From a virus, in the IMG/VR virus record IMGVR_UViG_3300045988_176431, positions 190,366 through 254,365 of that record: a stretch of DNA of 64,000 bases, one strand, 5' to 3'. The number at the start of each line of letters is the position of its first letter. Within the stretch, counting starts at the first letter, position 1. This document shows, in pieces, positions 26,506 through 54,779 of the stretch. Below the pieces are notes generated by a model. That model ran no database searches, was not told where the DNA came from, and worked only from the letters and a program-made list of their open reading frames with translations. The position numbers and the translations under genes were made by a program.

Positions 26506-26510
26506 TAAGT

Positions 26511-26631: not shown

Positions 26632-26635
26632 ATAA

Positions 26636-26708: not shown

Positions 26709-26732
26709 TTATTTCTTATTTGTTTTTTGCAA

Positions 26733-26806: not shown

Positions 26807-26848
26807 TAAATTTAATTATTTGTTTTTCTTATTATAAATAATTATAAA

Positions 26849-26920
26849 CTGCCCTAACTGGATTCGAACCAGTAAATACACGAGTCAAAGTCATGTGCCT
26901 TACCATTTGGCGATAGGGCA
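26849..26920 (-). tRNA. trnQ: tRNA-Gln (anticodon UUG)
   Basis: Reverse complement TGCCCTA-TC-GCCAAATGGTAAGGC-A-CATGA-CTTTGAC-TCGTG-TATTT-ACTGG-TTCGAAT-CCAGT-TAGGGCA-G. Confidence 0.8.
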
Positions 26921-27073
26921 ATAATTTCCCATTTGAGAATATCTTAAATGGGAAATGTCGAAAAAAGAAGTTTTTTGAGTAAAAACACTACATTTAGTCT
27001 TGAGATTATTCCTGTCATCTCAAGACTAAATAATTGTTATGATATGAATTATTTATTATTTATACCAGAAAAA

Positions 27074-35321: not shown

Positions 35322-35323
35322 AA

Positions 35324-35360
35324 ATTAGTGAGTACTAGAAAATATCTAGTACTCACTAAT
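35324..35360. terminator. bidirectional terminator
   Basis: attagtgagtactag/ctagtactcactaat 15-bp stem between convergent blocks. Confidence 0.8.
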
Positions 35361-35479
35361 TTATTTTTATAATTGAAATTCTTCATCACTATCAAGAAAA
35401 TCTTCAAAGTCCTTTGCACTTCTAGTTTTCAAAAATTTATCTTGTTTAGAAGTTTTTGGTTTATTCTTTTTTTGTTTGG

Positions 35480-38164
35480 CTAGGCACCCTCCGAATTATC
35501 TTGCTTTTGTTCATCTTGTTGTTTTTGTTGATTATTATCAGCTGGCTTATTCTTTGGAACAAGACTGTTTAATACTGTCATATAATCATTAGCACGATCT
35601 CTTGCAGCATTTGTACATGAACCAATCAAAGTTGTCATACAGGTAGAAATCTTTGTAATGTTCCCTTGCAAAGAACTTCCTTCTGGTGATTTATCTTGTT
35701 CAGAACCTGCTTGTTGCATTTTTTTACTAAACTGATCAATAGTAGAATTGACTTTATCTGTTGCTGCAGTAATATCTTTAGCAAAACCATTATAATATTT
35801 TTCGCAATACTCAATCATCTTTGGAATCTGTTGTCCAAGTTCACTATTTGCATAGGTTACTGCTTGTAATTTTTGATTTCCAATTTTAATACATTGAGTA
35901 AGTTTTTCACCAAGTGCTGCATCTTTATTATCCATCTGGACAGATGATAAACCAATACTATTGAAAATATCAGATTCAATTTTATTAGCATCCATTGCAA
36001 TTACTTTTTTCTTATCAAGACCATTCACTGTACCGATTACTTTATCCACAATTTGAATAGGGCTTTGTTCTTGATATGGTAAGATGTTAACACTTACGTT
36101 TACATAACTTCTCTTTAATAGAGCATCTTTATTAGCAGCAAGCCATTTCGTATTTGCTTTATTTGTATTAATCGCTTTACTAATTTTATCTTTAATCGTA
36201 TTAATAAAGGCTTTAATCTTTTCAATAATTTTTTGCATAAAACCTTGATCTACTGTATTTCCATCACCATTACCGTTTCCACTACCACCACTTTCAGCAC
36301 TGTTATCATTAACAGTAACTTTTGTTGCATTGTTTTGTTGATTACTTTGCTGTGATGTATTTGATGTTGGTTGTGATGAATTGTTATTTGTGGTATTTCC
36401 AGACTGTTGACCGTTATTTACAGTTGGTTGTGTACCATTTGTATTTTGGTCTGCCTCGAAATAAGATTTCATCTTCATATCTGCAAAATAGATGTCTCTC
36501 TGAAGTTCCTGATAAGCAGATTCAATCATATATTCATTACTAATTTTATTTAATTCAATAGCACATTCGTTAGTAACTGAAATGTAATCTGTATTATCAA
36601 TAGAAACAGGGTCCACTTTAATCTTTTCTTCTCTTACACCTAATTCTACTTCAATATTTTCATATCGATCCAGAATTGCTCGACCAAGTAATAATAAGAA
36701 GTCACGATAAGACTTATTCAAATCTTTTAATAATTCAATAGTCTCTTTGTTTCTCTCAATATTTTCATACTGATTATTTACATTATTTTCAATTGATGAT
36801 TTGATAGTGATAATTTCTTGATAAATACCTTTTGCAATTTTACCATATTTAATCAATTCTTCAGCACTTTCTTTCATCTCATTTAAAATGCTAGAATATA
36901 CATCTGCATCTTTTGCATCTTCATAAGAAGTATAATAACTAACATCTGAAATCTGATCTAATACTGAAGAAAAAGTATTCGTATAAGTCATACTTAAACC
37001 AGACTTCTCTTTAATTTCTTCTATTGGTACATCTGGATCATTTAATTCTTGTTTTAAAATGACAAGACCCTTATGAATCGTATTAAACATCATAAAAATC
37101 TGATGATATGGTTTCTCATCGTATGGGAAATTATCCTGATACAATTTCTCTCCAGTCTCAAATTCAAGATTCAAAATTTTATCATTAAAATAATTTTCAA
37201 TTCTTTCATTTACAGATGTTAAGAAATCAGAATTTCCATTGATTAAGTCATGAACAATATCTTCATCTCTAAAATCATTTACACCATCTAAAACAGATTC
37301 ATGCATAATACTTTCTCCATCTGGGAAGTATCTCATAAGAGTTTCTTTTAAACGAGCAAACTCTTGTAAGTTATATTTATATGATGAAACTTTTCGAATA
37401 AAACATCCAATCACATATTTGGTTGTAGTAACGAATACATTAATTAAAGATGTTAAAACAAAATCAACATATCTTGCTGTTTGAATAGTAAGTTTTTTCT
37501 CTATTCGTAATTTATTATAGGCTGTGATAGTAGCGTTAATATCTACAACACATTCTTCTACTGTATTAATTAATAAAGAACTTTCTTTACTAATATCTTT
37601 CAATGAAACATTTGCTGTACGAATAATAGGTAAGATTGTACCCGAAATAAAATTAGAATCTACTGTACAAACTTGACGATTATCAAGATTTACCAACTCA
37701 GAATCTTTCATATATTTCGGAAGTTTTGTAACTACAACTTGTTTTCTTAAATTACACACATATTCAGATGTTGTATATTTAAGAAATGCACCTTTTGATA
37801 ATTTTCCATTAATTGCTTGATTCATTAAATTTGGGATTTTATCTACAAATTGTTTTAAATAAGCAGGTTTAATATCCTGAATCTCATCTACATCTAAAAT
37901 TGGAATCGATGTAGGAACTGTACCAATTAATGGAGAGGTATAAATACTGGTATAAAAATCTTCCATATCAGTATTACATTTTATTATATCAGTCAATTCT
38001 GTTACTGAATTTGTAATAAATTGAAACGGAATTGCTTCTTTCATCAAAGAAGGATATCGAACAACTTCTGTTAATTGATTAATAGAAGCTTTTTCTACTG
38101 CTAAAATTTCTTTTGAGTAATCTGTCATATAATTATTAACAGACTCTAAAAATCCTAAAATCAT
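35480..38164 (-). CDS. large virion-like protein with a paralog-family module in its C-terminal third
   Basis: 894 aa. A low-complexity Q/N/S/G linker (..NGQQSGNTTNNNSSQPTSNTSQQSNQQ..AESGGSGNGNGDGN..) is followed by FMQKIIEKIKAFINTIKDKISKAINT. The start overlaps the upstream stop by 1 nt (TAATG). Confidence 0.6.
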   Translation of the reverse strand: MILGFLESVNNYMTDYSKEILAVEKASINQLTEVVRYPSLMKEAIPFQFITNSVTELTDIIKCNTDMEDFYTSIYTSPLIGTVPTSIPILDVDEIQDIKPAYLKQFVDKIPNLMNQAINGKLSKGAFLKYTTSEYVCNLRKQVVVTKLPKYMKDSELVNLDNRQVCTVDSNFISGTILPIIRTANVSLKDISKESSLLINTVEECVVDINATITAYNKLRIEKKLTIQTARYVDFVLTSLINVFVTTTKYVIGCFIRKVSSYKYNLQEFARLKETLMRYFPDGESIMHESVLDGVNDFRDEDIVHDLINGNSDFLTSVNERIENYFNDKILNLEFETGEKLYQDNFPYDEKPYHQIFMMFNTIHKGLVILKQELNDPDVPIEEIKEKSGLSMTYTNTFSSVLDQISDVSYYTSYEDAKDADVYSSILNEMKESAEELIKYGKIAKGIYQEIITIKSSIENNVNNQYENIERNKETIELLKDLNKSYRDFLLLLGRAILDRYENIEVELGVREEKIKVDPVSIDNTDYISVTNECAIELNKISNEYMIESAYQELQRDIYFADMKMKSYFEADQNTNGTQPTVNNGQQSGNTTNNNSSQPTSNTSQQSNQQNNATKVTVNDNSAESGGSGNGNGDGNTVDQGFMQKIIEKIKAFINTIKDKISKAINTNKANTKWLAANKDALLKRSYVNVSVNILPYQEQSPIQIVDKVIGTVNGLDKKKVIAMDANKIESDIFNSIGLSSVQMDNKDAALGEKLTQCIKIGNQKLQAVTYANSELGQQIPKMIEYCEKYYNGFAKDITAATDKVNSTIDQFSKKMQQAGSEQDKSPEGSSLQGNITKISTCMTTLIGSCTNAARDRANDYMTVLNSLVPKNKPADNNQQKQQDEQKQDNSEGA

Positions 38165-39102
38165 TAAATCTCAACTCCTTTAAATTGGTTCTTCATTTTA
38201 TTAGCAATACCAAACATTGTCATATTTCCTTTAATACGTTTTGTAATAACAGCATTTGTTACTTTTTCATATTGTGTTGTCAAAATAGTAAGAACCGATT
38301 CTCTATTTCGAATCTTCTTCATATTTTCTGGAGACAACTCTACTGATTCTTTTATTAAACTAGAATCCTTTGAAGCTTTCTTTAATTTATCTCCCATCTT
38401 TTTCGATGCTTCTTGCATTTGAGAAAGTTCATTATCTTTCTTTCCGTTCTTAGACATAAATTCTAATACATTTTTAAATGATATAGAAACTGTCTTATCA
38501 TCAGATCCAGATTCAATGAATGTTTTTTTAAATTTATTCATAGCAACTGCGGCAGTAGCAACTGCACCAACTTTAATAATTACATCAGCAGACTTATCAA
38601 GAGCCTTTCCAGCTTTAGCCATTCTAGCACGAGCACTCTTTGCATCCATTTTATCAATTTCATTCAATGTATTATCAATCTCACGATAGAAAGAAGACAA
38701 ATCCCTAAAGTTATTCAACTTAATTTTATCTTCTTTTACTGCTGCTCTCACTTGACTTGCAATATCTGGACGTTTCTTTTCTAATTGACGAAGAACTTTT
38801 TCTTCGTCTTTTAATGTCCACATATAATGAGTAAACTGTCCTATTTTCTCCTGAATAAATTTAATACAACGATCTACAATCTCAATTATTTTTTTACCAA
38901 TCGAGGTAATAGCATCTTTTACAGATTCTTCATATACATCAACGGATTCACTAAACATTGTCGCAGTAGATACTTTTTCACTTAAGTAATCTAACTCTGA
39001 CATATGATCCTGAAAAAAATCTTCTGATTCTTGATACATTTCTTCCATCTTTAATAAGATATTATCATTTTGAATGTAATTCACAGATATCATTCTTTTC
39101 AC
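38164..39102 (-). CDS. paralog-family protein
   Basis: Contains ..ATMFSES-VDVYEESVKDAITSIGKKIIEIVDRCIKFIQEKIGQF.. and the hydrophobic segment ADVIIKVGAVATAAVAMNKF. Confidence 0.6.
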   Translation of the reverse strand: MKRMISVNYIQNDNILLKMEEMYQESEDFFQDHMSELDYLSEKVSTATMFSESVDVYEESVKDAITSIGKKIIEIVDRCIKFIQEKIGQFTHYMWTLKDEEKVLRQLEKKRPDIASQVRAAVKEDKIKLNNFRDLSSFYREIDNTLNEIDKMDAKSARARMAKAGKALDKSADVIIKVGAVATAAVAMNKFKKTFIESGSDDKTVSISFKNVLEFMSKNGKKDNELSQMQEASKKMGDKLKKASKDSSLIKESVELSPENMKKIRNRESVLTILTTQYEKVTNAVITKRIKGNMTMFGIANKMKNQFKGVEI

Positions 39103-39149
39103 GTCCTTTCATATAATATACTTAAACAACTGTTTTTAACGGTAAAAAA

Positions 39150-39183
39150 TAAGATACATTCAGACAAAACTGAATGTATCTTA
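39150..39183 (-). terminator. internal terminator within the paralog array
   Basis: taagatacattcag/ctgaatgtatctta stem followed on the minus strand by T6. Confidence 0.7.
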
Positions 39184-39208
39184 TAAAGAAATCCAATAAT
39201 CTATTTTT

Positions 39209-40240
39209 TTAATCTTTAAGTTCTGCTTTATCATTTTTCTTTTTAAGTTTCTTTTCTTCTTTTTGCAGTCTACGTCTTTCTCTACGATCTGAGATAGAAT
39301 CTTTAACTGCTTGTTTTCCTGCATTTACAGCAGTACTTGTTGCAAATTTTTTCGTTGCATTGACAGCATCTACTGTATCAGATGAAATCGTTCCTTTTTT
39401 CTTACAATCTTTGTAAGCTTCAAAGAGAGCTTTTCTTGCATCTTTCATAAATGTAGTATCAGCATTTGCTTTCTTTTTTCTAGCACCACCAATTAAACGA
39501 ACTAATTTGCAGTCACTGCTTAATTTTGATACTTTTTTATATAGTTTCTTACGTTCAGCATCATTCAATGCTTTTTCAATACAATTAATCGTTTCAGAAT
39601 CAAAATCCATAAGATTTTTAATAGTCTGAGCAGATTCTTTTGATTGTTTACAAAGATTGATAACTTCTTTTACGGTTAAATTAATAACCCCTTTACCACC
39701 AATCTTAATAGCATCTCCACCGAATGTAAGTAATTTATTCTGAAATTCATTTAACATATTTGGAGACATTTCATCTTCACTCTTTGCATATTTTCTTGCT
39801 TCTTTCTCCATCTTAGTTAAAACTTTTTCATATTCAGCATTCATTTCACGCCAATTTGCTACTGTGATTTTTTTATTAGCGAATTCTGGATTCTTAGCAC
39901 ATTCTTCACTAAATTTTTCGAATTCGTTTTTTTCATCACCTTTTAGTGTAAAATAATCAATGAAGTCACCGATAATAGTTTTAATCTTACGAAATATTCC
40001 TTTAATGAAATCAATAGCTTTTCGAATGAGATTAAAACTTTTTGTTCCTTGCTCATTATTCTTTTTTTCTGTTTCTTCAGAACCCTCTACGAATACAGAT
40101 TCAAACAAAGAAACACTTTGAATAGAATTTGCAAGACTTTCCGCTTCATTTAAATATTGCATACATAAGTCCAAGGTTTTCACCTCCTTGTTTTTGTGAT
40201 TTCTTAAAGTTAGTCTGGTACTAAAATAAGTACCAGACAT
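39209..40240 (-). CDS. paralog-family protein
   Basis: Contains ..SVSLFES-VFVEGSEE..GTKSFNLIRKAIDFIKGIFRKIKTIIGDFIDYF.. and an R/K/E tail (RRERRRLQKEEKKLKKKNDK). Confidence 0.6.
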   Translation of the reverse strand: MSGTYFSTRLTLRNHKNKEVKTLDLCMQYLNEAESLANSIQSVSLFESVFVEGSEETEKKNNEQGTKSFNLIRKAIDFIKGIFRKIKTIIGDFIDYFTLKGDEKNEFEKFSEECAKNPEFANKKITVANWREMNAEYEKVLTKMEKEARKYAKSEDEMSPNMLNEFQNKLLTFGGDAIKIGGKGVINLTVKEVINLCKQSKESAQTIKNLMDFDSETINCIEKALNDAERKKLYKKVSKLSSDCKLVRLIGGARKKKANADTTFMKDARKALFEAYKDCKKKGTISSDTVDAVNATKKFATSTAVNAGKQAVKDSISDRRERRRLQKEEKKLKKKNDKAELKD

Positions 40241-40256
40241 ATTTATTATGCGTTAA

Positions 40257-41213
40257 TTAAAAAAGATCTTCTAATTCTGCTAAAAGAGCATCTGAATCAT
40301 ATCCATTCTCAAGAAATGAATCAACATCATCATTAATGTCTTCAGCGGATTCTTTAATAACATCAGCTTCAGTATCTCCTTTAATTTTAGCAACTTCTTT
40401 TTTCAATACAGAAATGCGGTTCATAATAGAATCAACTAATTCATTTGATTCATATTTACCAAGTTTTGTTCTAAAGTTTGCTGCAGCACTATAAGCACCA
40501 CGAATACTTGTTGCTGTTTCCGGATCATCAATCGATTTAACCAGATTTTCTACAGCCTGAGAAGTTTCGTTAGAAACTTTCTCAATTGCTTTTGGTAACT
40601 CAGATAATTCTTTATTAATCTCTTTTATAAGAACTCCAACAGCAACTGTTGTGAGTGCAACAGTTCCTGCAACAGATTTCTTATAATCTTCATCAAACTT
40701 ATCTCTCTTAGAAAGAATACCCTCAATATCAGACTGCTTAAATACACCACCCTTAATCTTTGCGATTGCTTTATCACAATCAGATTTATAAGAATTGATT
40801 ACTTTAAGTGGTTTCTTCTTATCGATTACCTGAACTTTCTTCTTTGCAATGAAAGGATTTAGTTTTACTTTTTTCTCAACTTTGTTAAGTGTTTCTTTCG
40901 TTGTTTTTGATACAACGATGCGAACAACCTTATCTTTCAAGTTAGAAATGAATTGTTTAAATGCTTCAATAATAGCAACAATTGCTTTTTTCAATTTAAC
41001 AATTGCTCCTTCTTCAGCCTGCTCATAAAGAGCAAATAAATCATCATCATTTCCAGATTCCTGCATAACTTTTAACTCTGCTTTCTTATTATTTAAAGAA
41101 AGCTCATTCATAGTAGATTCAAGATAGGCAGATACTTTCATATTTGCACTATCAAAAGAATCAGAAATGTCGATATAATCGCTCATTGCTTCTAAAAATG
41201 TCATTGTTTTCAA
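40257..41213 (-). CDS. paralog-family protein
   Basis: Contains ..SAYLES-T..ELKVMQES-GNDDD..GAIVKLKKAIVAIIEAFKQFISNLKDKV.. and the hydrophobic segment SVAGTVALTTVAVGVLIKEI. Confidence 0.6.
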   Translation of the reverse strand: MKTMTFLEAMSDYIDISDSFDSANMKVSAYLESTMNELSLNNKKAELKVMQESGNDDDLFALYEQAEEGAIVKLKKAIVAIIEAFKQFISNLKDKVVRIVVSKTTKETLNKVEKKVKLNPFIAKKKVQVIDKKKPLKVINSYKSDCDKAIAKIKGGVFKQSDIEGILSKRDKFDEDYKKSVAGTVALTTVAVGVLIKEINKELSELPKAIEKVSNETSQAVENLVKSIDDPETATSIRGAYSAAANFRTKLGKYESNELVDSIMNRISVLKKEVAKIKGDTEADVIKESAEDINDDVDSFLENGYDSDALLAELEDLF

Positions 41214-41229
41214 CTCCTTTTATATTTTA

Positions 41230-42207
41230 TTATAATGTGTTCAGAAGAGATACAATATCATCAAGATCATTGGTATCATCTGAACTTTCTGAAAACAAAC
41301 TATCTAAGTTGAAGATATCATCTTCAACAGACTCATTTGTTGGTTTTTCTTCTTTATTTTTATTCTTTTCTGGTTTTTCTTCTTTCTTTTCAGAATTATT
41401 ATCTTTATTTTCTTCATCAGAATTGTCCTCTGAATCAGATTTTCCAAAAGGAATTAAGCCCTTAATCCAATTAGCAATCTTACTGAAGAAAGATTTAATC
41501 TTTCCTAAGAAACTACTTGCATTTGGTGTTTCCTGACCATTTTTATCAGTGAGTTTATCTTTAATTCCTTTAAAGATATCTAATACTTTATCAACAGTAT
41601 TACTCTTGATGAGCTCACACCATTCGTTAACCCAATCTTTAATACCTTTGATATCGCCAGATTTTACTTTCTTAACATTATGAGCAGTAAGAGGAATAGC
41701 AGCACCAAGTGTAGCAACACCTAAAAGCTCTAAAAGAATCTTCCAAGCACCTTGCTTTTTAAATCCTTCCCAACCCTTACCAATCATATTTTTCAGTTGT
41801 TTCAATTTATTAAGGTTCTGTTCAGCATCTGCATCAACACCATAAACTTCACCTTTTGCTGCATCTGCATCCAATTTCTTCATCTGTTTAGAACCGAATA
41901 AGAATTCTTTTAATTTACTAAAGAATGTTTTAATCTGTTCCCAGATTCTTTTAATAAGACCATCTTTCTTCTCAGCAGTTTCATCTGCTGCTTCTTTATA
42001 ATAATCAGCAAGGTCATTCATACCTGCAGATTCCATCATACATTTTAACTCTGCTTCACGAAGATTTAACTCTTCCTGTTCCATTACGGTATTGTAAGCA
42101 AGAATTAATTTGTCAATTTTAAGACTCTCTTGCATAAGAGAAACCTCTGACTCTAATTCATTTTGATCAATAAAGTCATTATATAATACATTAGCCATTT
42201 TTTTCAA
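41230..42207 (-). CDS. paralog-family protein
   Basis: Contains ..VSLMQES-L..LKCMMES-AG..DGLIKRIWEQIKTFFSKLKEFLFG.., the hydrophobic segment ILLELLGVATLGAAIPLTAH, and an acidic S/D/E/N tail. Confidence 0.6.
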   Translation of the reverse strand: MKKMANVLYNDFIDQNELESEVSLMQESLKIDKLILAYNTVMEQEELNLREAELKCMMESAGMNDLADYYKEAADETAEKKDGLIKRIWEQIKTFFSKLKEFLFGSKQMKKLDADAAKGEVYGVDADAEQNLNKLKQLKNMIGKGWEGFKKQGAWKILLELLGVATLGAAIPLTAHNVKKVKSGDIKGIKDWVNEWCELIKSNTVDKVLDIFKGIKDKLTDKNGQETPNASSFLGKIKSFFSKIANWIKGLIPFGKSDSEDNSDEENKDNNSEKKEEKPEKNKNKEEKPTNESVEDDIFNLDSLFSESSDDTNDLDDIVSLLNTL

Positions 42208-42216
42208 CTCCTTTTA

Positions 42217-42966
42217 TTATTTCTTACGAAATGTATTCAATTTTTTCGTTACATCATTAAACATAACAGTCAATTTCTTACTTCTTTCAGAAGCCATTGC
42301 TGTCAGTTTATTTAACTCAGCCATAATTGGATGACCATCTTTTTTCAACTTATCATAAGTAATCTTGTCTTTTCTCTTTAATTCTTTTTCAATTCCTTTA
42401 CGAGCTTCATTGATATCATCAACTACTTTATCGTTTTTCAGAATTGATTTTTTAATCTTATTACCTACAATAACCGCTGCAGCAGTACTAAGAATAACTG
42501 GTGCAGTAGTCTTAAATGCTTTTTGACCTTTATCAGTCATACGTTTCATAACAACTGGGTCAATTCCCATAAGTTTTGCAAGTTTACTTACAATCTTATG
42601 AGATTCTGCAATCTCATGGTCAATATCATCACAGATTTTAGCATAATCTGCATCTAATCTAACTTTTGCAGTTTCTGAAGAAATATAATCTTCAGCTGTT
42701 AATTTATCACCCATATTCATACCAATTGACTTGAAGAAGGAGATAATAAAATCTTTAATTTTATTAATCATTTTTCCAATCTTCTCACAGATTTTTAATA
42801 AAATACCATCACCCTTATCTGAATCTTCAGACTCAAATAAAACTGATTCCTGATACATATTTAATCCATCTATGATATCGTTCTGACATTCATCAAGTTC
42901 AATTACATTTTCACGCATGAATATTTCAGTTCCTAAATCACTTGAATAGAGATTCTCTAAATACAT
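42217..42966 (-). CDS. paralog-family protein
   Basis: The start is moved to ATG 42966 (GAAAGGAGGA plus 9 nt). Contains ..LNMYQES-VLFES-EDSDKGDGILLKICEKIGKMINKIKDFIISFF.. and the hydrophobic segment TTAPVILSTAAAVIVGNKI. Confidence 0.6.
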   Translation of the reverse strand: MYLENLYSSDLGTEIFMRENVIELDECQNDIIDGLNMYQESVLFESEDSDKGDGILLKICEKIGKMINKIKDFIISFFKSIGMNMGDKLTAEDYISSETAKVRLDADYAKICDDIDHEIAESHKIVSKLAKLMGIDPVVMKRMTDKGQKAFKTTAPVILSTAAAVIVGNKIKKSILKNDKVVDDINEARKGIEKELKRKDKITYDKLKKDGHPIMAELNKLTAMASERSKKLTVMFNDVTKKLNTFRKK

Positions 42967-43039
42967 ACAAAAGTATCCTCCTTTCTTCAATGATTCAATT
43001 AACTAAATGTTTTTTATATTGAAATAAAGCTTATTTCAT

Positions 43040-43765
43040 TTAAATCAATACTGGTTTTGGATTTGAACGTACATCCACCAATCTTATATCATCATTATTT
43101 ATGATATTCTTATATTCATTAAGAACATCTTGAATAGCTGTTTTAATATGAGCTAAAAAGGTATGAAAAGATTCTATTACAAACATAAGCAAAGCTCTCA
43201 GAATTCTATTCTTATAATCCGTAGAATAGAGATTATTTAAACTACATGCTTTTGAAAGAGATTCTATATCTTCATAGAATTTGTCAATCATATTTTTCAA
43301 ATCAATTATTGATTCGATATATATGATACCATCTTCAAAAGAAACCTCTTCTTCTTTTTTTAAAGATTCAATATAGGTTGAATCTTTATCATATACAATA
43401 GAAATCTTTGATGCAATTTCTTTATATTCAGATTCGGTTTTTTCTTCTTTTTTCAATGATTGAATAATTTCTGTTACATATTCTAACATACCTTGATAAT
43501 ATTCTGAGTATTGATGAATCACGTAATTTAAATCAGCTGGTGATTTAATCTTATTTCCTTTATACTTCTTTTCTTTAATAACTTTATAAATATTCAAAAT
43601 AAGATCTTTTTGATTACCGATTCTATCGATAAATGAATCATTTGATTCTTTAATATCTGAAATACGATGCATAATCATATCATAATCAAGATTGAAAAGT
43701 TGATCCACTTCAATAGAATCATGATATGCTTTTTTAATATCTTTTTCTACTCGATCAGCTTCCAT
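43040..43765 (-). CDS. hypothetical protein, possible distant paralog-family member
   Basis: The start is moved to ATG 43765 (AAAGGAGGTG plus 6 nt). Contains ..ISDIKES-NDSFIDRIGNQKDLILNIYKVIKEK... There is no clear hydrophobic segment. Confidence 0.45.
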   Translation of the reverse strand: MEADRVEKDIKKAYHDSIEVDQLFNLDYDMIMHRISDIKESNDSFIDRIGNQKDLILNIYKVIKEKKYKGNKIKSPADLNYVIHQYSEYYQGMLEYVTEIIQSLKKEEKTESEYKEIASKISIVYDKDSTYIESLKKEEEVSFEDGIIYIESIIDLKNMIDKFYEDIESLSKACSLNNLYSTDYKNRILRALLMFVIESFHTFLAHIKTAIQDVLNEYKNIINNDDIRLVDVRSNPKPVLI

Positions 43766-43779
43766 AACAAACACCTCCT

Positions 43780-44769
43780 TTATACAATTTCAATATCAGA
43801 ATCATTGATTTCGTCACGGATTCCATCAATTGTCATTGTTTTATTGTCCTTATCAAGTTCACGTTGAGATGCTTGTTTTGCCTGAGCATCAGACACCTTG
43901 AATTTATCAGATAAAGAAAGTAACATATTTCTTACTTTCTCTTGTTTCTTAAGTATTTTTTGTTTTTTCTTTGGATCAATCGTTTGATTATACTCTACAC
44001 ATTGTTTATTTAATTCCAAGAAATAAGCTTGCATAGCCAAAGATTCAGAAATCTTTCTTCTCATTTCTTTAAAATAATAAATGAGTTTTCTTGTAATTGG
44101 AATAATAGAAAATGCAATTAAAAGAATAGCACCTATACCAACTGCAGTGGCAGGATCAAAAATCATATTCTCTTTCCCAGCATTTAACATATTATTCAAA
44201 TATTTAGTATATTCATTATTCTCATTCACTCCATTAAATTTCTCTAATGATTGAATGAAAAATAAATTTCCACGATATTTATCGTTGTTGATTGTAATTT
44301 TCATATCATGAGATGATGTTTGAATATCATTCATGAATGCAGAAATCAAACTAGTTGTTGCTTCTACACAAGTATATACATAAAGTTGGTACTCTAATGT
44401 AATATACTCTTTTTTCTTTGTATATGCTTTTGCATAGATCAGTTTGTTTTTCTTAATATTTTCAATTGCAGTCATAACAGTTGTTGCATAATTCACTAAC
44501 TCATTACATTTCTCCTCTTTACCAAGAGCAATTAATGTACTCAAAGTTTCAATCATAGATTTATAACCAGAATATTTTTCAATATAACCTCTTGACTTTG
44601 GAATATCACCAAAGTCAACATGATTCCGATCAATGATTGATTGAAATAGCTTTTCATGATATTTTTTTGTGATTGGAGAAGTAGCATCTTCCAAAACTGT
44701 CATGACTCTTATTAAAGGTTCATTAGTACCCTCCATAAGGATACTAGCAGCCTCATATAATGCTTTCAT
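43780..44769 (-). CDS. membrane-segment protein, possible distant paralog-family member
   Basis: Contains ..AASILMEG-T.., the strong TM-like segment ATAVGIGAILLIAFSIIPITRKLIYYF, and a K-rich coiled-coil tail. Confidence 0.45.
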   Translation of the reverse strand: MKALYEAASILMEGTNEPLIRVMTVLEDATSPITKKYHEKLFQSIIDRNHVDFGDIPKSRGYIEKYSGYKSMIETLSTLIALGKEEKCNELVNYATTVMTAIENIKKNKLIYAKAYTKKKEYITLEYQLYVYTCVEATTSLISAFMNDIQTSSHDMKITINNDKYRGNLFFIQSLEKFNGVNENNEYTKYLNNMLNAGKENMIFDPATAVGIGAILLIAFSIIPITRKLIYYFKEMRRKISESLAMQAYFLELNKQCVEYNQTIDPKKKQKILKKQEKVRNMLLSLSDKFKVSDAQAKQASQRELDKDNKTMTIDGIRDEINDSDIEIV

Positions 44770-44787: not shown

Positions 44788-46131
44788 TTAGTAATAAACT
44801 GATTTTATAAACTTAAAATATGGCTCGAAATTATACAGAGAATCAAATTCATTGACTAAGTCAGAAGAAACTGTATAAAAAGATGTCATCCCTCTTTTTG
44901 ATTTTAAATGATTCATAGTACCGGGGATTAACATATTTTGTACTTGAATCGACTTTGTTTTTTTATACACATCAATATTTACATCTTTATCTACTCTACC
45001 AATTAATCCGTCTAATAAATCTTTTTTTACATGTTTCATTGTATGATTTGATTCTCCGTCATCATTTCCACCATTTCCAAAAAATACAGTATCAATATCA
45101 GTAATATCTACTAAACAAGTGATACTGCTTCGTTTTGAAACTTTACATTTTCGTATAATCGAATCAACAGATTTATCTTCAGAAAGATAATCTCCAAATA
45201 AATGACCTGCATATATGGTCGTTACATTTTTACAATCAATAATATGTTGACCACAATCCATACAATCCGAAAATATAAGTAATTGTTTTGTATCCATATT
45301 ATTCAATAATTGTTTTGTTATCATCAAATTACTGCAAATTCCACCCAATTCAATTATAGAAGTATCTACAGAATTAGAAATTAAATTTGCTAGGTTTTTA
45401 CAATGGTAAAAACCACAATCAACTGATTGATAACTTATCGAAGAAACAGATGAACCTTTAATGGTTCCTCTTACAAAAACATTTGAAAAGGTGCTATTAA
45501 TTGATATAACACAAACTCCACTAGCAATCATATCAACATTATTTGATTCAATGTCAACTTCTGAAAATATAATATTTTCAATACAGGCATTCTCAATTTT
45601 CATAAAGAACGCAAAGCTATAAAATGGAATTTGTTTTGCATTTTTCAACCCAAAGATTGCGTGATTCATACCATTTAAAGTACCTTTAAAAACACCTTCT
45701 GAAAAAAATTTTTTTTCTTCTTTTTGATAAGTCGGTGAACCAATTGGTTGCCAAGAATATCCATTTAAGTCTATATTATTTTCAACTGTAACAGTACAGT
45801 TTTCGAATGTAATACCGTTTGAAACAAGTAAGCCAAAACCAGCTAATTGTTCTGCGGTATAAATGTGAAAAATTGTTTCTTCAGGATCATACCATGAAAT
45901 ATCTCTCATTTCTCCATTCCATTTAAAAGCATTTTTTTTATCTTCTACATCAGTTCTTTTATAAATATAATACTGACTAATGTCATTATTATTTGGAATC
46001 GATATATAGTCTCCTGATTTTGTCTGTTCAATTAAATCAAGAACGTCTTCTTCATATCTTACTTTACACTCAGAAGAGATTTCTGAATTTGTAATTTGAA
46101 CGTCATTATTTATTTTATTTAAGCTACTCAT
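44788..46131 (-). CDS. beta-helix-type (GLUG-motif-like) surface/virion protein
   Basis: IYTAEQLAGFGLLVSNGITFENCTVTVENNIDLNGYSWQPIGSP..FKGTLNGMNHAIFGL resembles the N-terminal signature of GLUG/beta-helix surface proteins. It is followed by repetitive segments of the (I/V)xGxxxS type. Confidence 0.35.
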   Translation of the reverse strand: MSSLNKINNDVQITNSEISSECKVRYEEDVLDLIEQTKSGDYISIPNNNDISQYYIYKRTDVEDKKNAFKWNGEMRDISWYDPEETIFHIYTAEQLAGFGLLVSNGITFENCTVTVENNIDLNGYSWQPIGSPTYQKEEKKFFSEGVFKGTLNGMNHAIFGLKNAKQIPFYSFAFFMKIENACIENIIFSEVDIESNNVDMIASGVCVISINSTFSNVFVRGTIKGSSVSSISYQSVDCGFYHCKNLANLISNSVDTSIIELGGICSNLMITKQLLNNMDTKQLLIFSDCMDCGQHIIDCKNVTTIYAGHLFGDYLSEDKSVDSIIRKCKVSKRSSITCLVDITDIDTVFFGNGGNDDGESNHTMKHVKKDLLDGLIGRVDKDVNIDVYKKTKSIQVQNMLIPGTMNHLKSKRGMTSFYTVSSDLVNEFDSLYNFEPYFKFIKSVYY

Positions 46132-47465
46132 CTGGAAGAACCTAGCATCCTTGTTAACTCTTGTCCTAACTTATTAGAATTCATTGTTACCTCACGTTGT
46201 AAAGTATCCAATGAATAAGTTTGGAATCCGGTTTTACTTCCATCTAAGAGCATATCAATCGTCTGTGTGGTTTCATCCACAATGACAAATCCCATGAGGA
46301 ATAATTCACTCATAAGTTTTTTAGCAAATACCACATTCTTTAAATCAAATCCATATTTTGTCAAAATCTCATTATACTCATATTGAGAAATAACAAGAGT
46401 AGCAAATGGAGCAAGACGACTAAGTCCTGTAGTAGATACTTTTACTTTTCTCTTTTTTAAATCTTTCAATTTAGAAATCATTCGTCCTGTTTGGTCAGAA
46501 CGATTTGATACATTGAAGTTTGTATCATTTACTTTAAAAATGATATCTTTTAATAAAGATAATTCTCCTGTTGTCCATCGAATGAAATTAAGAGAAAATC
46601 TTTTATTCTTTAAGACATAAGCAATATTATCAATTAAAGATTTACTCTTACCTAAGTGAAGAGTAGTCTTTACACCAATTGTAAATGTCATATATTGAGC
46701 AAATGATGTGTCACCTTTTGTTGCAAGAATTTTTAAATCCATTGCATAAGGTTGCATATCATTAATTTTTTTAATATCCCTTTCTAACATCCTAGGTGTT
46801 TGTTCATATTGTGTAGCTTTTACATTTCTTTCATTTGTAGCATTCTTTTCTTCATCTTCTAATGAATTCAAGTAATTACTAACAATGTCACCTTTCATCT
46901 CATTTTTACTTTTTGATTCTACATAAGGTTGAATCGCATTCAAATTGTACTGAGATAAGGACTCTTTCATACCAGCTTTCATACTTCGAATAAGAGTAGC
47001 TGGGATGGATTCAGATTCAGTAAACATAAATCCACGCTCATTGTCATCAGTCATATATAATCTCAGTTCACCATTATAAAAATCTTTATAATGATTAATT
47101 ACACAATCAATGACTTCTTTTTCACTTTCAGAATATAAATCATCATCTACTGATTCAAGACTGAAATTGTTCTGATATTGAGCAATGAACTGTCGTGGGT
47201 TTTTGATATAATTCAAATCTATAACACCGTTTGCTGAAAGATAAATTTGAGTAAAGGAAGCATACACTCGGTCTAAGTTTCTTGCAATCGTAGTACTCAT
47301 ATCAATTGGAATACTATCTGAAATAATACAAGGAAATTGAATTGTCTGCTCATTAGCACCTCGGGCAAAACTCTTTGTGTTCTTTTTACTTACAACATCA
47401 CCAACAGTTGCAACATTCCTTAAAACATCTTTCGTTGTATTATAGATATCTGAAAGGATTCCCAT
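46128..47465 (-). CDS. hypothetical 445-aa virion-block protein
   Basis: Long ORF with a 4-nt overlap (ATGA) with the downstream gene. No motif recognised. Confidence 0.55.
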   Translation of the reverse strand: MGILSDIYNTTKDVLRNVATVGDVVSKKNTKSFARGANEQTIQFPCIISDSIPIDMSTTIARNLDRVYASFTQIYLSANGVIDLNYIKNPRQFIAQYQNNFSLESVDDDLYSESEKEVIDCVINHYKDFYNGELRLYMTDDNERGFMFTESESIPATLIRSMKAGMKESLSQYNLNAIQPYVESKSKNEMKGDIVSNYLNSLEDEEKNATNERNVKATQYEQTPRMLERDIKKINDMQPYAMDLKILATKGDTSFAQYMTFTIGVKTTLHLGKSKSLIDNIAYVLKNKRFSLNFIRWTTGELSLLKDIIFKVNDTNFNVSNRSDQTGRMISKLKDLKKRKVKVSTTGLSRLAPFATLVISQYEYNEILTKYGFDLKNVVFAKKLMSELFLMGFVIVDETTQTIDMLLDGSKTGFQTYSLDTLQREVTMNSNKLGQELTRMLGSSR

Positions 47466-47550
47466 GACATTTTCACCCCTTTCTATTAAATTTTATTTAT
47501 AGTACTGTTTTTTGCCTTAAGTTCAAGGATTAATTTTTATACGTAAAAAT

Positions 47551-47590
47551 TAAAGAGAACGAATATGAATTAACATATTCGTTCTCTTTA
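47551..47590 (-). terminator. rho-independent terminator
   Basis: taaagagaacgaatatg/catattcgttctcttta 17-bp stem right after the stop of gene 47595-49025. Confidence 0.8.
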
Positions 47591-47594
47591 AATA

Positions 47595-49025
47595 TTATTT
47601 ATTTGCTTTTTTAGCAGCTCTTACAGATTCAATTGTCTTATCAAGCAATTTATCATATTCATTAAGCCTTACTTTTAAAGCATTCTTATATAAGTTTACA
47701 TCTTCCATTTCAACTTGTTTTACATCTTTCTTATCCCAATCTTTAATCACAACATTAACACGTTCAATAAGCTTTGTAATATTATTTACAATACTCGGAA
47801 TTCCGAAAGCCAATGGAGACAAGACACATGCAATTAAATCACGAAGAAAGAACGGATATGAACCAGTAATAAAACTAAATAAAACACTACCAATTGTACT
47901 TCCATCTTCTATCATTTCATCATAAGATTTATGTACAGTCTTTTTGGACTGCTCTAAAACTTTAATTGCTTTATCGTATTCTTTTTTCTTAATATATCCT
48001 TTAGCTTTTGCCATTTGTTCTTTGTATGTCTTCTTTGTCTCTTTAAATTTCTTTCTTGCGTCTAAGTTTGCACCCTCAGTTGCAACAAAATCATTTAGCA
48101 TAACTACACGATCATTTCTTAGCATATTTATTTCTCCTGTCTCTTTCATAGTTGCATAATTATTAGCAAGTTTCTTTGCAGATACACCATTATAACTTTC
48201 AAGCATTAAAGAATTTAATACAGAAAGTTTCGTGTATTCTTTCACAGATTCCATAAATGCTAATTTATGCTGAATTGCTGGGTCTAAATCATTCCCACTC
48301 TCTTTTACAAGATTCATTTTATTAATCATGATTCCCTCAAAAAGTGTTGGTTGATATAATTTTGAACTTGGTGATTTTACACCTTTTAAAACTAACGCTT
48401 TTTCATAAGCAGACTCTGTTGTAATATTCTCATCATTCTTCATAGAATCTTCAATATCTTTAATCTTTTGCTGCTCATCTTTTACACGTTTAATTTCATT
48501 ATTGGTAGCAATCTTCACATTATCTTTGATACATTCACTGAGTTCATCTAATTCCATATTTGTAGAGATTTCTTTCAATCTATCTTCTACATCAGGATCA
48601 TCAATATTGAAATCAATTTCATCAACTGATGTTTCATTAATATTGAGTGCATATTCTTTAAAATAATCATCTAAGAATTTATTAACAGATTCCATCAAGA
48701 TTTTTGCAGGTTTGCTACCTTTTTTAATTGCTTCTTTTACATAAAACGTTGTACCTTTTGGTTGTTTTGCTTTCAAAAATTGAATGAATTCATCATCCAA
48801 ATCATTGGATAAAACATCTTTTACATCATTATCAATTGGTACTGCATTTTTATAAATATCAGAAATCAGTTTATCTAAACAAATTTCTCTTGCATCTTCT
48901 TTTACTTCTTTAATTTTCTTAAACTTAAAATCCACACTTTCTGTGAATTTCTTAATATCTTTTTCTTTCTTCTTCGTCTTTTCAACTTCATCTAAGAAGT
49001 TAATCATGGCTTGTTCACGCACCAT
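47595..49025 (-). CDS. hypothetical 476-aa protein with C-terminal hydrophobic region (paralog-family-like features)
   Basis: Contains ..AKILMES-VNKFLDDYFKEY.., ..FMES.., ..LMLES.. and GSTIGSVLFSFITGSYPFFLRDLIACVLSPLAFGIPSIV. Confidence 0.5.
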   Translation of the reverse strand: MVREQAMINFLDEVEKTKKKEKDIKKFTESVDFKFKKIKEVKEDAREICLDKLISDIYKNAVPIDNDVKDVLSNDLDDEFIQFLKAKQPKGTTFYVKEAIKKGSKPAKILMESVNKFLDDYFKEYALNINETSVDEIDFNIDDPDVEDRLKEISTNMELDELSECIKDNVKIATNNEIKRVKDEQQKIKDIEDSMKNDENITTESAYEKALVLKGVKSPSSKLYQPTLFEGIMINKMNLVKESGNDLDPAIQHKLAFMESVKEYTKLSVLNSLMLESYNGVSAKKLANNYATMKETGEINMLRNDRVVMLNDFVATEGANLDARKKFKETKKTYKEQMAKAKGYIKKKEYDKAIKVLEQSKKTVHKSYDEMIEDGSTIGSVLFSFITGSYPFFLRDLIACVLSPLAFGIPSIVNNITKLIERVNVVIKDWDKKDVKQVEMEDVNLYKNALKVRLNEYDKLLDKTIESVRAAKKANK

Positions 49026-52844: not shown

Positions 52845-54779
52845 TTAATCATTATGACCTTTGAATTTTAATTTAAAATAATAATCACTGGAATCTTTTC
52901 CTCTCACAACTTCAATAAAAGGAGCACCAGCCCAAGTATATCCAGAACCTCCTATTTTAGGATTATATGTTCTAAGATATTTTGTTGTATCACTAACACG
53001 TGAATTTAAGTTAAATTCAATCAATGCCATTGGATTAAAATCTTCTTTTAAAGAATATTGATAAGTGATCGATACTTCTGGTGAAGATAATACGTTTCCT
53101 TTCGACCAACTATAAGAACTAGATGGGACATTAACTGGAAATATTCCATAATATTTTGACCAGAATAAAATCGTCTCACCATCTTCTGCTGTTAAAATAT
53201 AATAACAACTACAAGCATAATCTAATACTTTATTCCATAAATATTCTTTTTTCGGATACCAATATCCTAAATAAACATTTGAGATATAATCTGTCCATAA
53301 TTTATGAAGATGAAAAATATCCAATTCTCTATTATCAGTATATTGAATGGATACCTCACCATTTGCTTTTGATTCTGTATTACTTTTACCAAAAGCAATT
53401 TGATTTTTCTTAAAAGTCTGACCCGATACATCTGTCACAAGAGATTCATCTGTTAATGAAAATTCTTGTGCTTTATTCGATAAAAACATAGAAAAGTCAT
53501 TTTTACTATCATTTTGTGATAAGCAATCAAGAAGTCTTTTTCTATGGTTGTAAGCATATTGGAAATTAGGGTCTGCTTTTGTTTTATCATTCAAAGTACG
53601 ACCAGATTCACCATAAATATTACAATCAGGTTTTGTGAAAAATACATGAGCAAAACCTCTAGATAAGTAATCATCTGCTTGTGCTAATTTAAAACGATTA
53701 TAACGAGTAAACATATTATCATATAATTCATCAGGAGTTCTTACATTGAAATTTATATTTTTATATAAAGTTTCCATGTCTTTCTTTAAATCAGCACTCA
53801 TACTTTTTTCTAAATCTCCATTAAAGACTTCATCTGTCTGATAGTCCATATAGTAATTATATTTATAAGGTGACTTTTTATTTCCTGTACTAGGAAATTT
53901 TTTTGAATTTTGTACAATCTTAGGTCTATGATGAGTAATATCTGCAACTGACGTTCTAAAATTATTTTTTGGTTTAAGAAGATTATCTGTTGCTTTATTA
54001 CTAAACTTTGTAGCATAATTACTATTCTGTTTTCGTTTACCACCATAAACACTATAAGTTTCTTCATCAATATATCCTATTGTAACAATCTTATTCTGAC
54101 TATTCTTTAACCCAACAGGAACCTGAATATTAAAATCTTTACCTGAAGTTGGTGCTGCAAAAAATTGTAAAAAGTTTCTTCCAAAGTATTGATAAGAGCT
54201 TTTTAACTGAAATAATGCATCACCAAATTCTTTTACTTTTTTAGGGTCCAGTTCACCATTTGTCGTTATTACTTCGATATTATTACGAAATAATAAATTT
54301 ACAAAATTATTTCTTGAATTCTTGTAGATTAACCACCCATCTGTAATATCTTTTGGTTGTTTTCGATCATCTAATGTAACCGAATATATCCAAATTGTTC
54401 CGTTATCATCAATCCTAAAATGTGACGTAACTTGAACTGTATCATCAATTGAAAAACGTTTTACAGTCTTTGCTCCTGCACTTGCTTTTTCATACATACG
54501 AAGTCCCATTTTGCAATTAGGATTAATAATAGAACCTACGGTAGGGTAACAAGTCATAGTATGCTTACCAGACTTTTTATCAAAATATAAATAATAACGA
54601 TCTGTGTTTGGTGAATATATCCAACGATTTCCATCTTTATCTTCTATAACACATCTTGTATCAACAAAAAATTTTTTGATACTTTTTCCTAAATCATATT
54701 CCTTTGATTCTCCAATTATCTCAACTTCTTTTACACCAAAATCAATATCTTCATTTAATTTTGCATAACTAATCGACAT
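52845..54779 (-). CDS. hypothetical 644-aa virion-like protein
   Basis: Long ORF and first gene of the minus-strand block. No catalytic motif recognised. Confidence 0.55.
   Translation of the reverse strand: MSISYAKLNEDIDFGVKEVEIIGESKEYDLGKSIKKFFVDTRCVIEDKDGNRWIYSPNTDRYYLYFDKKSGKHTMTCYPTVGSIINPNCKMGLRMYEKASAGAKTVKRFSIDDTVQVTSHFRIDDNGTIWIYSVTLDDRKQPKDITDGWLIYKNSRNNFVNLLFRNNIEVITTNGELDPKKVKEFGDALFQLKSSYQYFGRNFLQFFAAPTSGKDFNIQVPVGLKNSQNKIVTIGYIDEETYSVYGGKRKQNSNYATKFSNKATDNLLKPKNNFRTSVADITHHRPKIVQNSKKFPSTGNKKSPYKYNYYMDYQTDEVFNGDLEKSMSADLKKDMETLYKNINFNVRTPDELYDNMFTRYNRFKLAQADDYLSRGFAHVFFTKPDCNIYGESGRTLNDKTKADPNFQYAYNHRKRLLDCLSQNDSKNDFSMFLSNKAQEFSLTDESLVTDVSGQTFKKNQIAFGKSNTESKANGEVSIQYTDNRELDIFHLHKLWTDYISNVYLGYWYPKKEYLWNKVLDYACSCYYILTAEDGETILFWSKYYGIFPVNVPSSSYSWSKGNVLSSPEVSITYQYSLKEDFNPMALIEFNLNSRVSDTTKYLRTYNPKIGGSGYTWAGAPFIEVVRGKDSSDYYFKLKFKGHND

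Follow-up and report, generated by a model that had tools for sequence, protein, structure and literature searches.

A distant AR9/PBS1-like jumbo phage carries an expanded, undescribed paralogue family of putative internal virion proteins

The present study concerns 64,000 nucleotides (nt) of phage DNA (positions 190,366 to 254,365 of IMG/VR record IMGVR_UViG_3300045988_176431), which cover only about one-quarter of the phage genome and are hereafter called the window. Consecutive minus-strand genes at window positions 35480 to 44769, together with genes scattered elsewhere, had been described in a first-pass annotation as an old, lineage-specific, expanded family of at least 10 members. They were said to have a four-part layout, namely, an acidic leader, a basic amphipathic helix, one Gly/Ala-rich hydrophobic segment, and a Lys/Glu or acidic tail. 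Our analysis reveals that, by sequence comparison, the paralogue family is real but smaller than described: of the members within the 64 kb, eight are robust and two marginal. We further consider it probable that their products are internal or ejected virion proteins that a protease processes. They would be analogues, perhaps even remote homologues, of the inner-body proteins of phage phiKZ.

Evidence for a diverged paralogue family

The family members in the window are as follows.

38164-39102, minus strand: member A; leader sites MYQES, MFSES, and VYEES; likely start ATG 39093
39209-40240, minus strand: member B; leader site SLFES; NPEFANKKITV motif in common with C; hydrophobic segment degenerate
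40257-41213, minus strand: member C, the prototype and best conserved type; leader sites YLES and VMQES; likely start ATG 41204
41230-42207, minus strand: member D; leader sites LMQES and CMMES; C-terminal site TNES/FEES/YTES in orthologues, before the acidic tail
42217-42966, minus strand: member E; leader sites MYQES and LFES; leave-one-out profile E = 1.3e-6
35480-36487, minus strand: C-terminus (Gc) of the last array gene, residues ~560-894 of an 894-aa protein
12888-13637, minus strand: dispersed member H; leader site MIES; hydrophobic segment IAGAGLVLTLSASLAII
25407-26204, minus strand: dispersed member K; leader and helix; C-terminus hydrophobic, with no mid-protein hydrophobic segment
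8790-9701, minus strand: marginal dispersed member I; leader site WMTES and C-terminal PMHES, conserved in orthologues
24317-25378, minus strand: marginal dispersed member J; leader site YMVES; late hydrophobic segment IGAIVTLAGLAASIGG at residue 258; NVSES before the acidic tail

Every open reading frame (ORF) noted earlier is present on the minus strand at its coordinates. Since database orthologues of A, C, and D measure 309, 315, and 322 amino acids (aa), the likely starts of these three genes are ATG codons lying three codons downstream.

Taken alone, the homology signal within the window is marginal. BLASTP linked 12888, 38164, 39209, 40257, 41230, 42217, and the 35480 C-terminus at E = 1e-4 to 0.06 in a tiny database. 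In leave-one-out hidden Markov models (HMMs), where scores spanned 4 to 24 bits, the held-out member was the best real protein in five of six trials, with only 7 to 24 bits, and reversed decoys scored like real members. DNA similarity between the copies is negligible (weak matches of 21 to 89 nt only), in agreement with the earlier description of old duplications without DNA-level identity.

Orthologues were taken from two relatives, L002 (a 255.7-kb ENA contig) and L009 (a 257.7-kb IMG/VR contig), which are perfectly syntenic with the window. Each paralogue has its own orthologue there (20 to 66% identity; 30 to 73% for the genes neighbouring the array), and thus, the duplications predate the divergence of these phages. 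When the orthologue profiles were compared all against all with hhalign, as had been recommended, C and D gave 95.8% (E = 8e-9, 159 columns), D and E 72.6%, and C and E 32%. Corresponding values for E and the 35480 C-terminus and for B and C were 19% and 12.7%, and A was collinear with E over 149 columns (44%) and with B over 166 (11.3%). All these pairs lie above the best of 156 reversed-profile comparisons (score 30.2). The top 10 of the 78 pairs all fall among A, B, C, D, E, and the 35480 C-terminus, and K/E-rich neighbours occur in none of them.

An HMMER profile built from nine window paralogues only was searched exhaustively against 1.84 billion representative proteins. It retrieved 434 clusters (clustered at 50% identity) at E <= 1e-3, 49 of them at E <= 1e-10. 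Nearly all 434 matches span the whole 182-position profile at the N-terminus of proteins of 300 to 700 aa, and the domain measures about 190 aa. The C-type makes up 103 of the top 147 representative matches. Because 116 of the 147 best matches show BLAST similarity to more than one paralogue group, they act as intermediates.

A separate probe consisted of 100 metagenomic C-type sequences and held no orthologues of the groups tested. It gave 97.8% for 12888 (E = 8e-13, 121 columns), 95.8% for 39209 (E = 6.6e-9), 95.5% for 41230 (E = 1.6e-8), 95.2% for 25407 (E = 2.8e-8, 100 columns), 88.2% for 38164 (E = 3e-6, 111 columns), and 64% for 42217. Further values were 62.5% for 24317 (E = 7.3e-5, 61 columns), 50% for the 35480 C-terminus, over the helix only, and 24% for 8790; the null maximum was 25, and non-family neighbours reached at most 17. 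The 8790 gene reached 50% with 38164 (E = 1.6e-4, 114 columns), and A-type orthologues match it by BLASTP (E = 3e-4). On these sequence comparisons, 8790-9701 and 24317-25378, the latter scored without an orthologue profile, are probable, marginal members.

When all 71 window ORFs of at least 80 aa were scanned with the deep profile, exactly the ten accepted or marginal ORFs, and no others, rose above noise. Since the deep profile holds representatives of several window paralogues, this ranking is not independent for most members. The 25407-26204 gene still reached E = 2.4e-14 in the deep HMM though it has no representative in the profile. Three genes counted earlier as distant or partial members are unrelated and were rejected. 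The 43040-43765 gene stayed at null level (hhalign best 19.9 to 22.5), 47595-49025 scored 17.8, and 43780-44769 has a family of its own (phrog_23545) and is a homologue of AR9 gp214. The N-terminal 560 aa of the 35480-38164 protein, at noise level in hhalign, were rejected as well.

That there is no family at all, the likeness being K/E/I-rich composition plus amphipathic-helix periodicity, is scarcely credible: the marginal within-window scores with similar reversed decoys, and the short aligned stretches of the 35480 C-terminus, 8790, and 24317, would suit it, but real pairs reach E = 1e-8 to 1e-13 over 80 to 160 collinear columns in orthologue-based or deep profiles, reversed nulls stay at or below 30 and equally K/E-rich neighbours at or below 17, and intermediate sequences and common motifs such as NP-x-x-A-x-KK-V join the groups. 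Likeness by composition alone is thus already refuted for the eight core members and could apply only to 8790 and 24317.

The first-pass annotation did not recognise the family, and Pfam and PHROGs indeed hold no model that consistently matches the window members or 118 diverse relatives. Its description as lineage-specific fails, given at least 434 clusters at 50% identity, separate orthologues in divergent relatives, and a two-gene version in AR9 (see below). A homologue search with the eight-paralogue alignment gave, among the matches listed, mostly near-identical A-type sequences. One A-type record, P0011 (JGI/IMG; equal to 38164-39102), is named 'DNA repair ATPase RecN' by IMG, which is very probably a coiled-coil-driven misannotation.

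Layout, predicted fold, and the hydrophobic-x-Glu-Ser motif

The four-part layout holds in its first half. All nine stand-alone members have an acidic leader (net charge -2 to -11) and a charge of +3 to +7 over the 32 residues after it, with a hydrophobic-x-E-[S/G/A] site between the two. The Gly/Ala hydrophobic segment, however, is degenerate in 39209 and absent at the usual position in 25407, and the tail is variable. In C, the basic helix IVKLKKAIVAIIEAFKQF is followed by a K-x-N-P-x-x-A-K-K-K-V motif and then by the hydrophobic segment AGTVALTTVAVGVLI, with a VIKES site ahead of the acidic C-terminal tail. In the 35480 C-terminus, a Q/N-rich linker leads to the basic helix GFMQKIIEKIKAFINTIKDKISKA and then to a conserved C-terminal domain. 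The deep consensus runs from a variable acidic stretch through 'AELKV-x-x-E-S-G-T', the basic amphipathic helix 'I-x-K-I-I-x-A-I-x-x-F', and 'K-x-N-P-x-L-x-x-K-K-V-x-V-x-D' (Pro 92% and Lys 91% conserved) to the small-residue hydrophobic 'gAa.vtiTv.AaiaL' and then KK.

AlphaFold2 predicts a helical bundle from the C-type alignment (pLDDT 88.7, pTM 0.84). In this model, the acidic N-terminal helix (residues 2-48, the leader) lies antiparallel against a long basic amphipathic helix (53-97), and the loop between them (49-52) holds the conserved Glu. Further helices follow, with short strands at 123-127 and 184-188, and the acidic C-terminal tail is disordered. Since the hydrophobic segment corresponds to strand 184-188 and the start of helix 189-224, the model would place it inside the fold. 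On this model, the segment does not look like a free membrane anchor.

Foldseek of the C-type model against the PDB returned nothing at E <= 1e-3, and a PDB sequence search with the family profile returned nothing significant (best E = 0.024). Matches to paramyxovirus F proteins (PDB, E = 0.05 to 0.9) were treated as compositional. ClyA-type alpha-pore-forming toxins (PaxB/XaxB, AhlB, SmhB, and Hbl), with Foldseek E = 0.1 to 0.6, probability 0.1 to 0.25, and TM-scores of 0.15 to 0.2, were likewise rejected.

The most informative functional feature is the conserved hydrophobic-x-E-S motif between leader and helix, which the first-pass annotation had overlooked. Its Glu is 92% conserved among 140 diverse sequences, and the motif is kept at aligned columns in orthologues whose leaders otherwise vary. 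It reads MFSES, LFYES, IYEES, and LFAES in A; LFES, LFES, and IYES in B; VMQES, VMTES, and CITES in C; CMMES, CIEES, and CVMEG in D; and WMTE-S and WVTEA in I. D and I have a second conserved site just ahead of the acidic C-terminal tail. Among all 50 window proteins, the motif is over-represented (within-protein shuffling, p < 0.04, uncorrected) only in family members, in the neighbours 43040, 46128, and 47595 (4 to 5 sites against ~0.8 expected; 4 against 0.75 in 43040), and in 6806-8812. It is not enriched in the NrdD, radical-SAM, tail-fibre-like, tail-tube-like, tape-measure-like, and 1249-aa proteins.

The modelled loop position suits a candidate prohead-protease cleavage site. By analogy, the motif and charge pattern are those expected for substrates of a prohead protease of the T4 gp21 or phiKZ gp175 type. 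Such a protease cuts after Glu at x-x-E, and the head proteins of giant phages lose long N-terminal propeptides to it, often through cuts at several sites (PMC5694885). Cuts at the predicted sites would raise the predicted pI of C from 5.2 in the precursor to 9.3, and most mature forms would lie at 9.2 to 10.

Relationship to AR9 and phiKZ proteins and the proposed function

The window phage is a distant AR9/PBS1-like jumbo phage. Phages of this clade have uracil DNA and form no nucleus. Homologues of its large virion proteins, 25 to 29% identical, occur in AR9, PBS1, phiR1-37, Staphylococcus S6-like phages, LPJP1, and Fusobacterium JD-Fnp jumbo phages. Relatives L008 to L015 were recovered with the neighbour gene 43780-44769. 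In the more distant L010, L012, and L013, this neighbour is 33 to 35% identical, and two to four genes of 330 to 380 aa lie immediately after the 329-aa gene.

Among the array genes of distant relatives (X types), X1 to X3 are clear paralogues of one another (96 to 99%). The X types are joined to the window family on two sides. The 35480 C-terminus is related to X4, the stand-alone fourth array gene (X4 against Gc, 93.8%, E = 1.7e-7, 156 columns), and to X2 (79%), and it reaches 65% with 12888; the C-type probe reaches 62.5% with X1. The earlier assignment of the C-terminal third of 35480-38164 to the family is thereby upheld. An X1-3 profile matches AR9 gp215, annotated as a virion structural protein (HMM E = 2e-9; hhalign 92.7%), and AR9 gp216 reaches 49% against the deep window profile, with a null score of 18.

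The AR9 gene order gp213-gp214-[gp215, gp216] equals 46128-43780-[array] in the window, with the same layout in L002 and L009. BLASTP relates AR9 gp213 to 46128 (E = 7e-22) and gp214 to 43780 (E = 1e-9). By these homologies and the gp215/gp216 profile matches, AR9 has a two-gene array at the same position, and the window genes are of the gp215/gp216 type both by homology and by position after the gp213/gp214 homologues. Like the window members, gp215 of AR9/PBS1 has an acidic leader, a basic helix (EFFKKAIAFFQELWKKF), and an acidic tail at the same genomic position. In contrast, AR9 has two copies where the window has about 10, and the X-type branch of gp215 has no hydrophobic segment.

When the C-type model was searched against BFVD, Foldseek matched, from AR9, a 'virion protein' (E = 3e-4) as well as a protein of 296 aa, a length that gp216 shares. 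It also matched virion structural proteins of Noxifer, Psa21, Phabio, and 201phi2-1, and in addition two proteins annotated 'internal head protein'. These virion and head matches had a probability of 0.9 to 1.0, except for 201phi2-1 (0.51), and TM-scores of 0.18 to 0.54. The Psa21 (366 aa) and Phabio (483 aa) matches have the same lengths as inner-body-locus genes recruited by an iterated phiKZ_IP HMM. The gene of the AR9 'virion protein' match (268 aa) was not located within the 92 kb of AR9 annotation examined.

The closest parallel in layout is to the phiKZ_IP family (PF12699; phiKZ gp92-96, 162, and 163, and SPN3US gp53/54). Both consist of tandem diverged paralogues in the virion module; in the window, five members lie side by side in one operon, and the gene that follows them adds its C-terminus. 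Both arrays end in a protein of 800 to 900 aa (phiKZ gp97; window 35480-38164), and copy number differs among phages. An N-terminal propeptide (putative in the window family), an x-x-Glu site, a basic amphipathic helix, and a helical fold with Foldseek cross-matches are further common features. Unlike phiKZ_IP, the window family has a hydrophobic P3 (M/F/L/I/Y/C rather than S/A/G), a leader of 47 to 82 aa rather than more than 100, and a conserved Gly/Ala/Thr-rich hydrophobic segment, and it belongs to the AR9/PBS1 clade instead of the nucleus-forming phiKZ clade.

The PF12699 gathering threshold of 27 bits is not reached by the window family. No window member or L009 orthologue matched at E <= 0.1, and none of the 118 diverse relatives at E <= 1e-3, the nearest being two X1 proteins at 26.7 and 26.0 bits (E = 4e-6 and 7e-6); phiKZ gp92-96, as positive control, scored 32 to 253 bits. 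When the window HMM was run against ~170 AR9 and phiKZ ORFs, the top four were phiKZ gp95, gp96, gp93, and gp92, at only 9 to 11 bits. A five-sequence phiKZ_IP profile gave 65% (E = 6e-5) with 39209, and a 21-sequence profile only 2.9%; with the latter, X1 reached 67%, X123 57%, the C-type probe 21%, and 41230 10%. All groups align the basic helix in register onto the phiKZ_IP segment 'iStEDIKe.aKKiwd.ikk', which is an S-x-E cleavage motif followed by the basic helix. A homologue search with the phiKZ IP alignment gave only three proteins among the matches listed. Since layout, context, and probably fold class resemble those of phiKZ_IP and yet membership was not found, we regard the genes as an undescribed sister family in the AR9-like clade. 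It may be a remote relative of phiKZ_IP.

The first-pass annotation had suggested internal or ejected virion proteins as one possibility, and this is the best functional reading, with precedent in phiKZ and SPN3US (PMC5694885; bioRxiv 10.1101/2024.03.24.586471). Its other suggestion, membrane remodelling, is speculative. In phiKZ, the PF12699 paralogues undergo proteolysis and injection and are found together with DNA and a lipid vesicle, their individual roles being open (bioRxiv 10.1101/2024.03.24.586471). Head paralogue families of phiKZ and SPN3US have 2 to 20 members with propeptides of more than 100 residues and extra internal cleavage sites (PMC5694885). SPN3US gp47, an essential ejection-protein candidate, loses a long propeptide at x-x-E, so that its mature form starts near a predicted transmembrane helix; it is fast-evolving in a syntenic position, and host-membrane contact after ejection was proposed by the authors (PMC5694885). 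Unlike the window proteins, gp47 is a single gene of more than 560 aa and not a paralogue family, and the likeness here is one of description. In T4, the internal proteins IPI-III and Alt have an N-terminal peptide that directs them to the prohead core and is cut by gp21 at L/I-x-E, also with a hydrophobic P3 (PMC5694885). The T4 targeting sequence measures 10 to 20 aa, however, the sequences are unrelated, and there is no large paralogue array. The mature forms of IPI-III and Alt are basic, sit with the DNA, and are ejected.

Following these precedents, each window protein would be made late as a precursor whose leader serves as a capsid-targeting and masking propeptide. A maturation protease in the prohead would cut after the Glu, and some paralogues would also be cut at the second conserved site before the acidic C-terminal tail. 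The acidic peptides would leave, and a basic helical-bundle protein (predicted pI ~9-10) would stay with the packaged DNA and be ejected with the genome at infection. Duplication and divergence would have led to about 10 specialised copies, in parallel to the phiKZ_IP inner-body paralogues. Contact of the Gly/Ala/Thr-rich segment with a membrane after ejection is a speculative addition. We infer the propeptide role, cleavage, head residence, DNA association, and ejection jointly, and as a set they appear likely.

Several points weigh against this reading. The window subfamily is known from sequence and models. A head rather than a tail location is tentative, since tail-type proteins are among the flanking genes; AR9 gp215 is annotated as a virion protein, not specifically of the head, and gp216 as 'hypothetical'. 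Window-type sequences reach only 2 to 21% with phiKZ_IP, and reversed nulls reach 29 to 32 for some comparisons. A search for the prohead protease gene recognised none in the window, which covers about one-quarter of the genome, and the hydrophobic P3 differs from the S/A/G-x-E of phiKZ-like proteases (PMC5694885). Motif enrichment at p near 0.02 to 0.04 (8790, 41230, and 40257) is weak for each protein singly and uncorrected over ~50 proteins. Furthermore, the B-type AlphaFold2 model (21 sequences) reached pLDDT 60 and was left out of the fold search; the helix boundaries of this low-confidence model over residues 53-180 nearly coincide with those of C.

Alternatively, the proteins might be scaffold or core proteins of the prohead that organise assembly of the head and are then degraded by the prohead protease at multiple x-E sites and expelled, being absent from mature virions and not ejected. 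The all-helical, highly charged composition would agree with this, as would the multiple sites in several members (e.g., five hydrophobic-x-E-S in 38164) and the other motif-rich proteins in the operon; T4 core proteins are cut at L/I-x-E, again with a hydrophobic P3 (PMC5694885). However, the sites are concentrated in the leader and towards the C-terminus, and the ~200-aa core is site-poor and folds confidently. Besides, AR9 lists its homologue gp215 as a virion structural protein, and a set of ten diverged scaffold paralogues would be without precedent, whereas paralogue sets of internal proteins have one (PMC5694885). We therefore consider a scaffold role unlikely.

A more elaborate version of ejection, for which we see a slim chance, would make the proteins a hitherto unrecognised, switchable class: in the precursor, the acidic helix would pin the basic helix and keep the Gly/Ala/Thr segment buried in a soluble bundle, until a cut made in the prohead arms the protein. 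Once ejected, it would refold into the host membrane, as ClyA-type toxins and viral fusion proteins do, giving a DNA conduit or an early membrane compartment. If this were true, the paralogues would be specialised components of a machine that is injected to remodel membranes, in a jumbo phage without a nucleus.

Another explanation, which we regard as improbable, holds that the proteins are tail-lumen or 'pilot' proteins, stored in the tail with the tape measure and released first to breach or line the membrane, x-E-S being no protease site. It stays alive since tail-type genes flank the block, also upstream, and the conserved small-residue hydrophobic segment resembles that of tape measures. 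Weak PHROG tape-measure matches also occur (41230 at E = 2.6e-4, X-type at ~3e-5, and a few of the 118 relatives), but they are scattered over different PHROGs, as composition would give. The fold neighbours, moreover, are head or inner-body-locus proteins of phiKZ-like phages and not tail proteins, and a 92% conserved Glu in an inter-helix loop needs some explanation. Membership in a tape-measure family was itself rejected: the PHROG matches are scattered (E = 1e-4 to 3e-5), the proteins measure 250 to 350 aa, and a separate candidate lies at 60843-63956.

Finally, non-virion membrane or host-takeover proteins expressed from the structural operon, e.g., for superinfection exclusion or lysis, are very improbable: most members have a hydrophobic segment and virion evidence for the window's own subfamily is indirect, but the N-termini are acidic without signal peptides, the virion-module position is conserved as far as AR9, virion proteins make up the fold neighbours, and the model places the hydrophobic segment within a soluble bundle.

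Gene block, wider setting, and meaning for jumbo phages

The array is part of one co-directional block of virion genes on the minus strand, bracketed by strong hairpins, and several genes of this block match PHROGs named 'virion structural protein'. Other features of the block are as follows.

47550-47591: bidirectional terminator-like hairpin, 18 pairs; upstream boundary of the transcription unit
35322-35362: bidirectional terminator-like hairpin, 18 pairs; array end, between convergent genes
39149-39184, minus strand: terminator-like hairpin, 15 pairs; lies between B and A, in a gap of 106 nt
43040-43765, minus strand: non-member neighbour, co-transcribed, with conserved synteny; enriched in hydrophobic-x-E-S
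43780-44769, minus strand: non-member neighbour, AR9 gp214 homologue; phrog_23545 'virion structural protein' (PHROG E = 3e-16)
36488-38164, minus strand: N-terminal 560 aa of the 894-aa protein, not family-related; no hhalign link above null

The hairpin at 39149-39184 may be an internal attenuator. In every relative, 43780-44769 forms the upstream border of the array. AR9 gp213, the homologue of 46128-47465 (minus strand), is a virion structural protein whose annotation includes a transmembrane domain. Neither Pfam nor PHROGs yielded a family for the 36488-38164 part. A tail-tube-like domain lies at 52845-54779 and a tape-measure/lysin candidate at 60843-63956 (minus strand, 1037 aa). The latter combines an endolysin/lysozyme-type domain (residues 465-657) with tape-measure-like regions and is probably a tape measure that carries its own cell-wall hydrolase. 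The ~1.2 kb at 54780-55964, which separate the tail-tube-like gene from 55965-56990, have no ORF of at least 100 aa, only short ones of 86 to 91 aa.

Directly downstream of family member 8790-9701 lies 6806-8812 (minus strand, 668 aa), whose C-terminal 385 aa match AR9 gp052 and phiR1-37 g205 'phage structural protein'. It has 10 hydrophobic-x-E-S sites against 1.4 expected, 7 of the 10 in an N-terminal extension of ~280 aa, and is a candidate head protein, heavily processed and with a long propeptide. Neither of the motif-rich proteins, 6806-8812 and 46128-47465, had a match in a PDB sequence search.

Elsewhere in the window, 18546-21518 (minus strand, 990 aa) and 21873-22541 (minus strand, 222 aa) have a module in common that is repeated several times in the larger protein (BLASTP E down to 6e-18 at several offsets; PHROG matches 'tail protein' and 'minor tail protein'). 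The 17716-18549 and 27120-27977 genes (minus strand, ~280 aa each), both with a weak match to DUF4376 at the C-terminus, may form another small pair of paralogues, perhaps related to fibres. Five tRNA genes, for Leu(taa), Asn(gtt), Glu(ttc), Met(cat), and Gln(ttg), form a minus-strand cluster at 26311-26921, directly downstream of 25407-26204. The anaerobic ribonucleotide reductase NrdD (15194-17488, minus strand) and a radical-SAM gene (4491-5825) point to an anaerobic host. The NrdD family match is split between residues 1-423 and 568-764, which implies an insertion of ~145 aa, and a plus-strand ORF (15776-16330) overlaps the gene.

GC content is ~28% across the window, rising locally to 34 to 38% at 1-2000 and 62001-64000; several ORFs overlap on both strands at 494-1996. 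A scan of the window for sigma-70 promoters found 85 against 88 expected; such a lack of enrichment is expected for phages with their own RNA polymerases. The phage is known from metagenomes only, and essentially the same phage was found in IMG/VR, ENA, and Logan, as contigs of 249 to 258 kb. A locus search with the 329-aa neighbour (43780-44769) as single query returned the same phage only, and a scan of metagenome contigs for related loci found nothing. Among 50,697 deposited phage records, megablast of the array found no near-identical record, and tblastn with member C or an X-type protein gave no match.

Giant phages pack tens of megadaltons of protein in their capsids and inject it with the DNA. 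Expanded, protease-processed sets of internal virion proteins are known in jumbo phages; what is new is the family itself, which is undescribed. Under the proposed function, the internal-protein theme would extend to the AR9/PBS1-like clade and its many metagenome-only relatives. The family would add to this theme a different preference at P3, a conserved hydrophobic element of small residues, and a compact domain of ~190 aa that is modelled with confidence and whose candidate cleavage site, sharply conserved, lies in a loop exposed in the model. A Pfam-style model would annotate hundreds of phage proteins now called 'hypothetical' or mis-named. Furthermore, the series of copy numbers, from 2 in AR9 through 4 in L010 and L013 to about 10 in the window, would be useful for asking why such proteins multiply.

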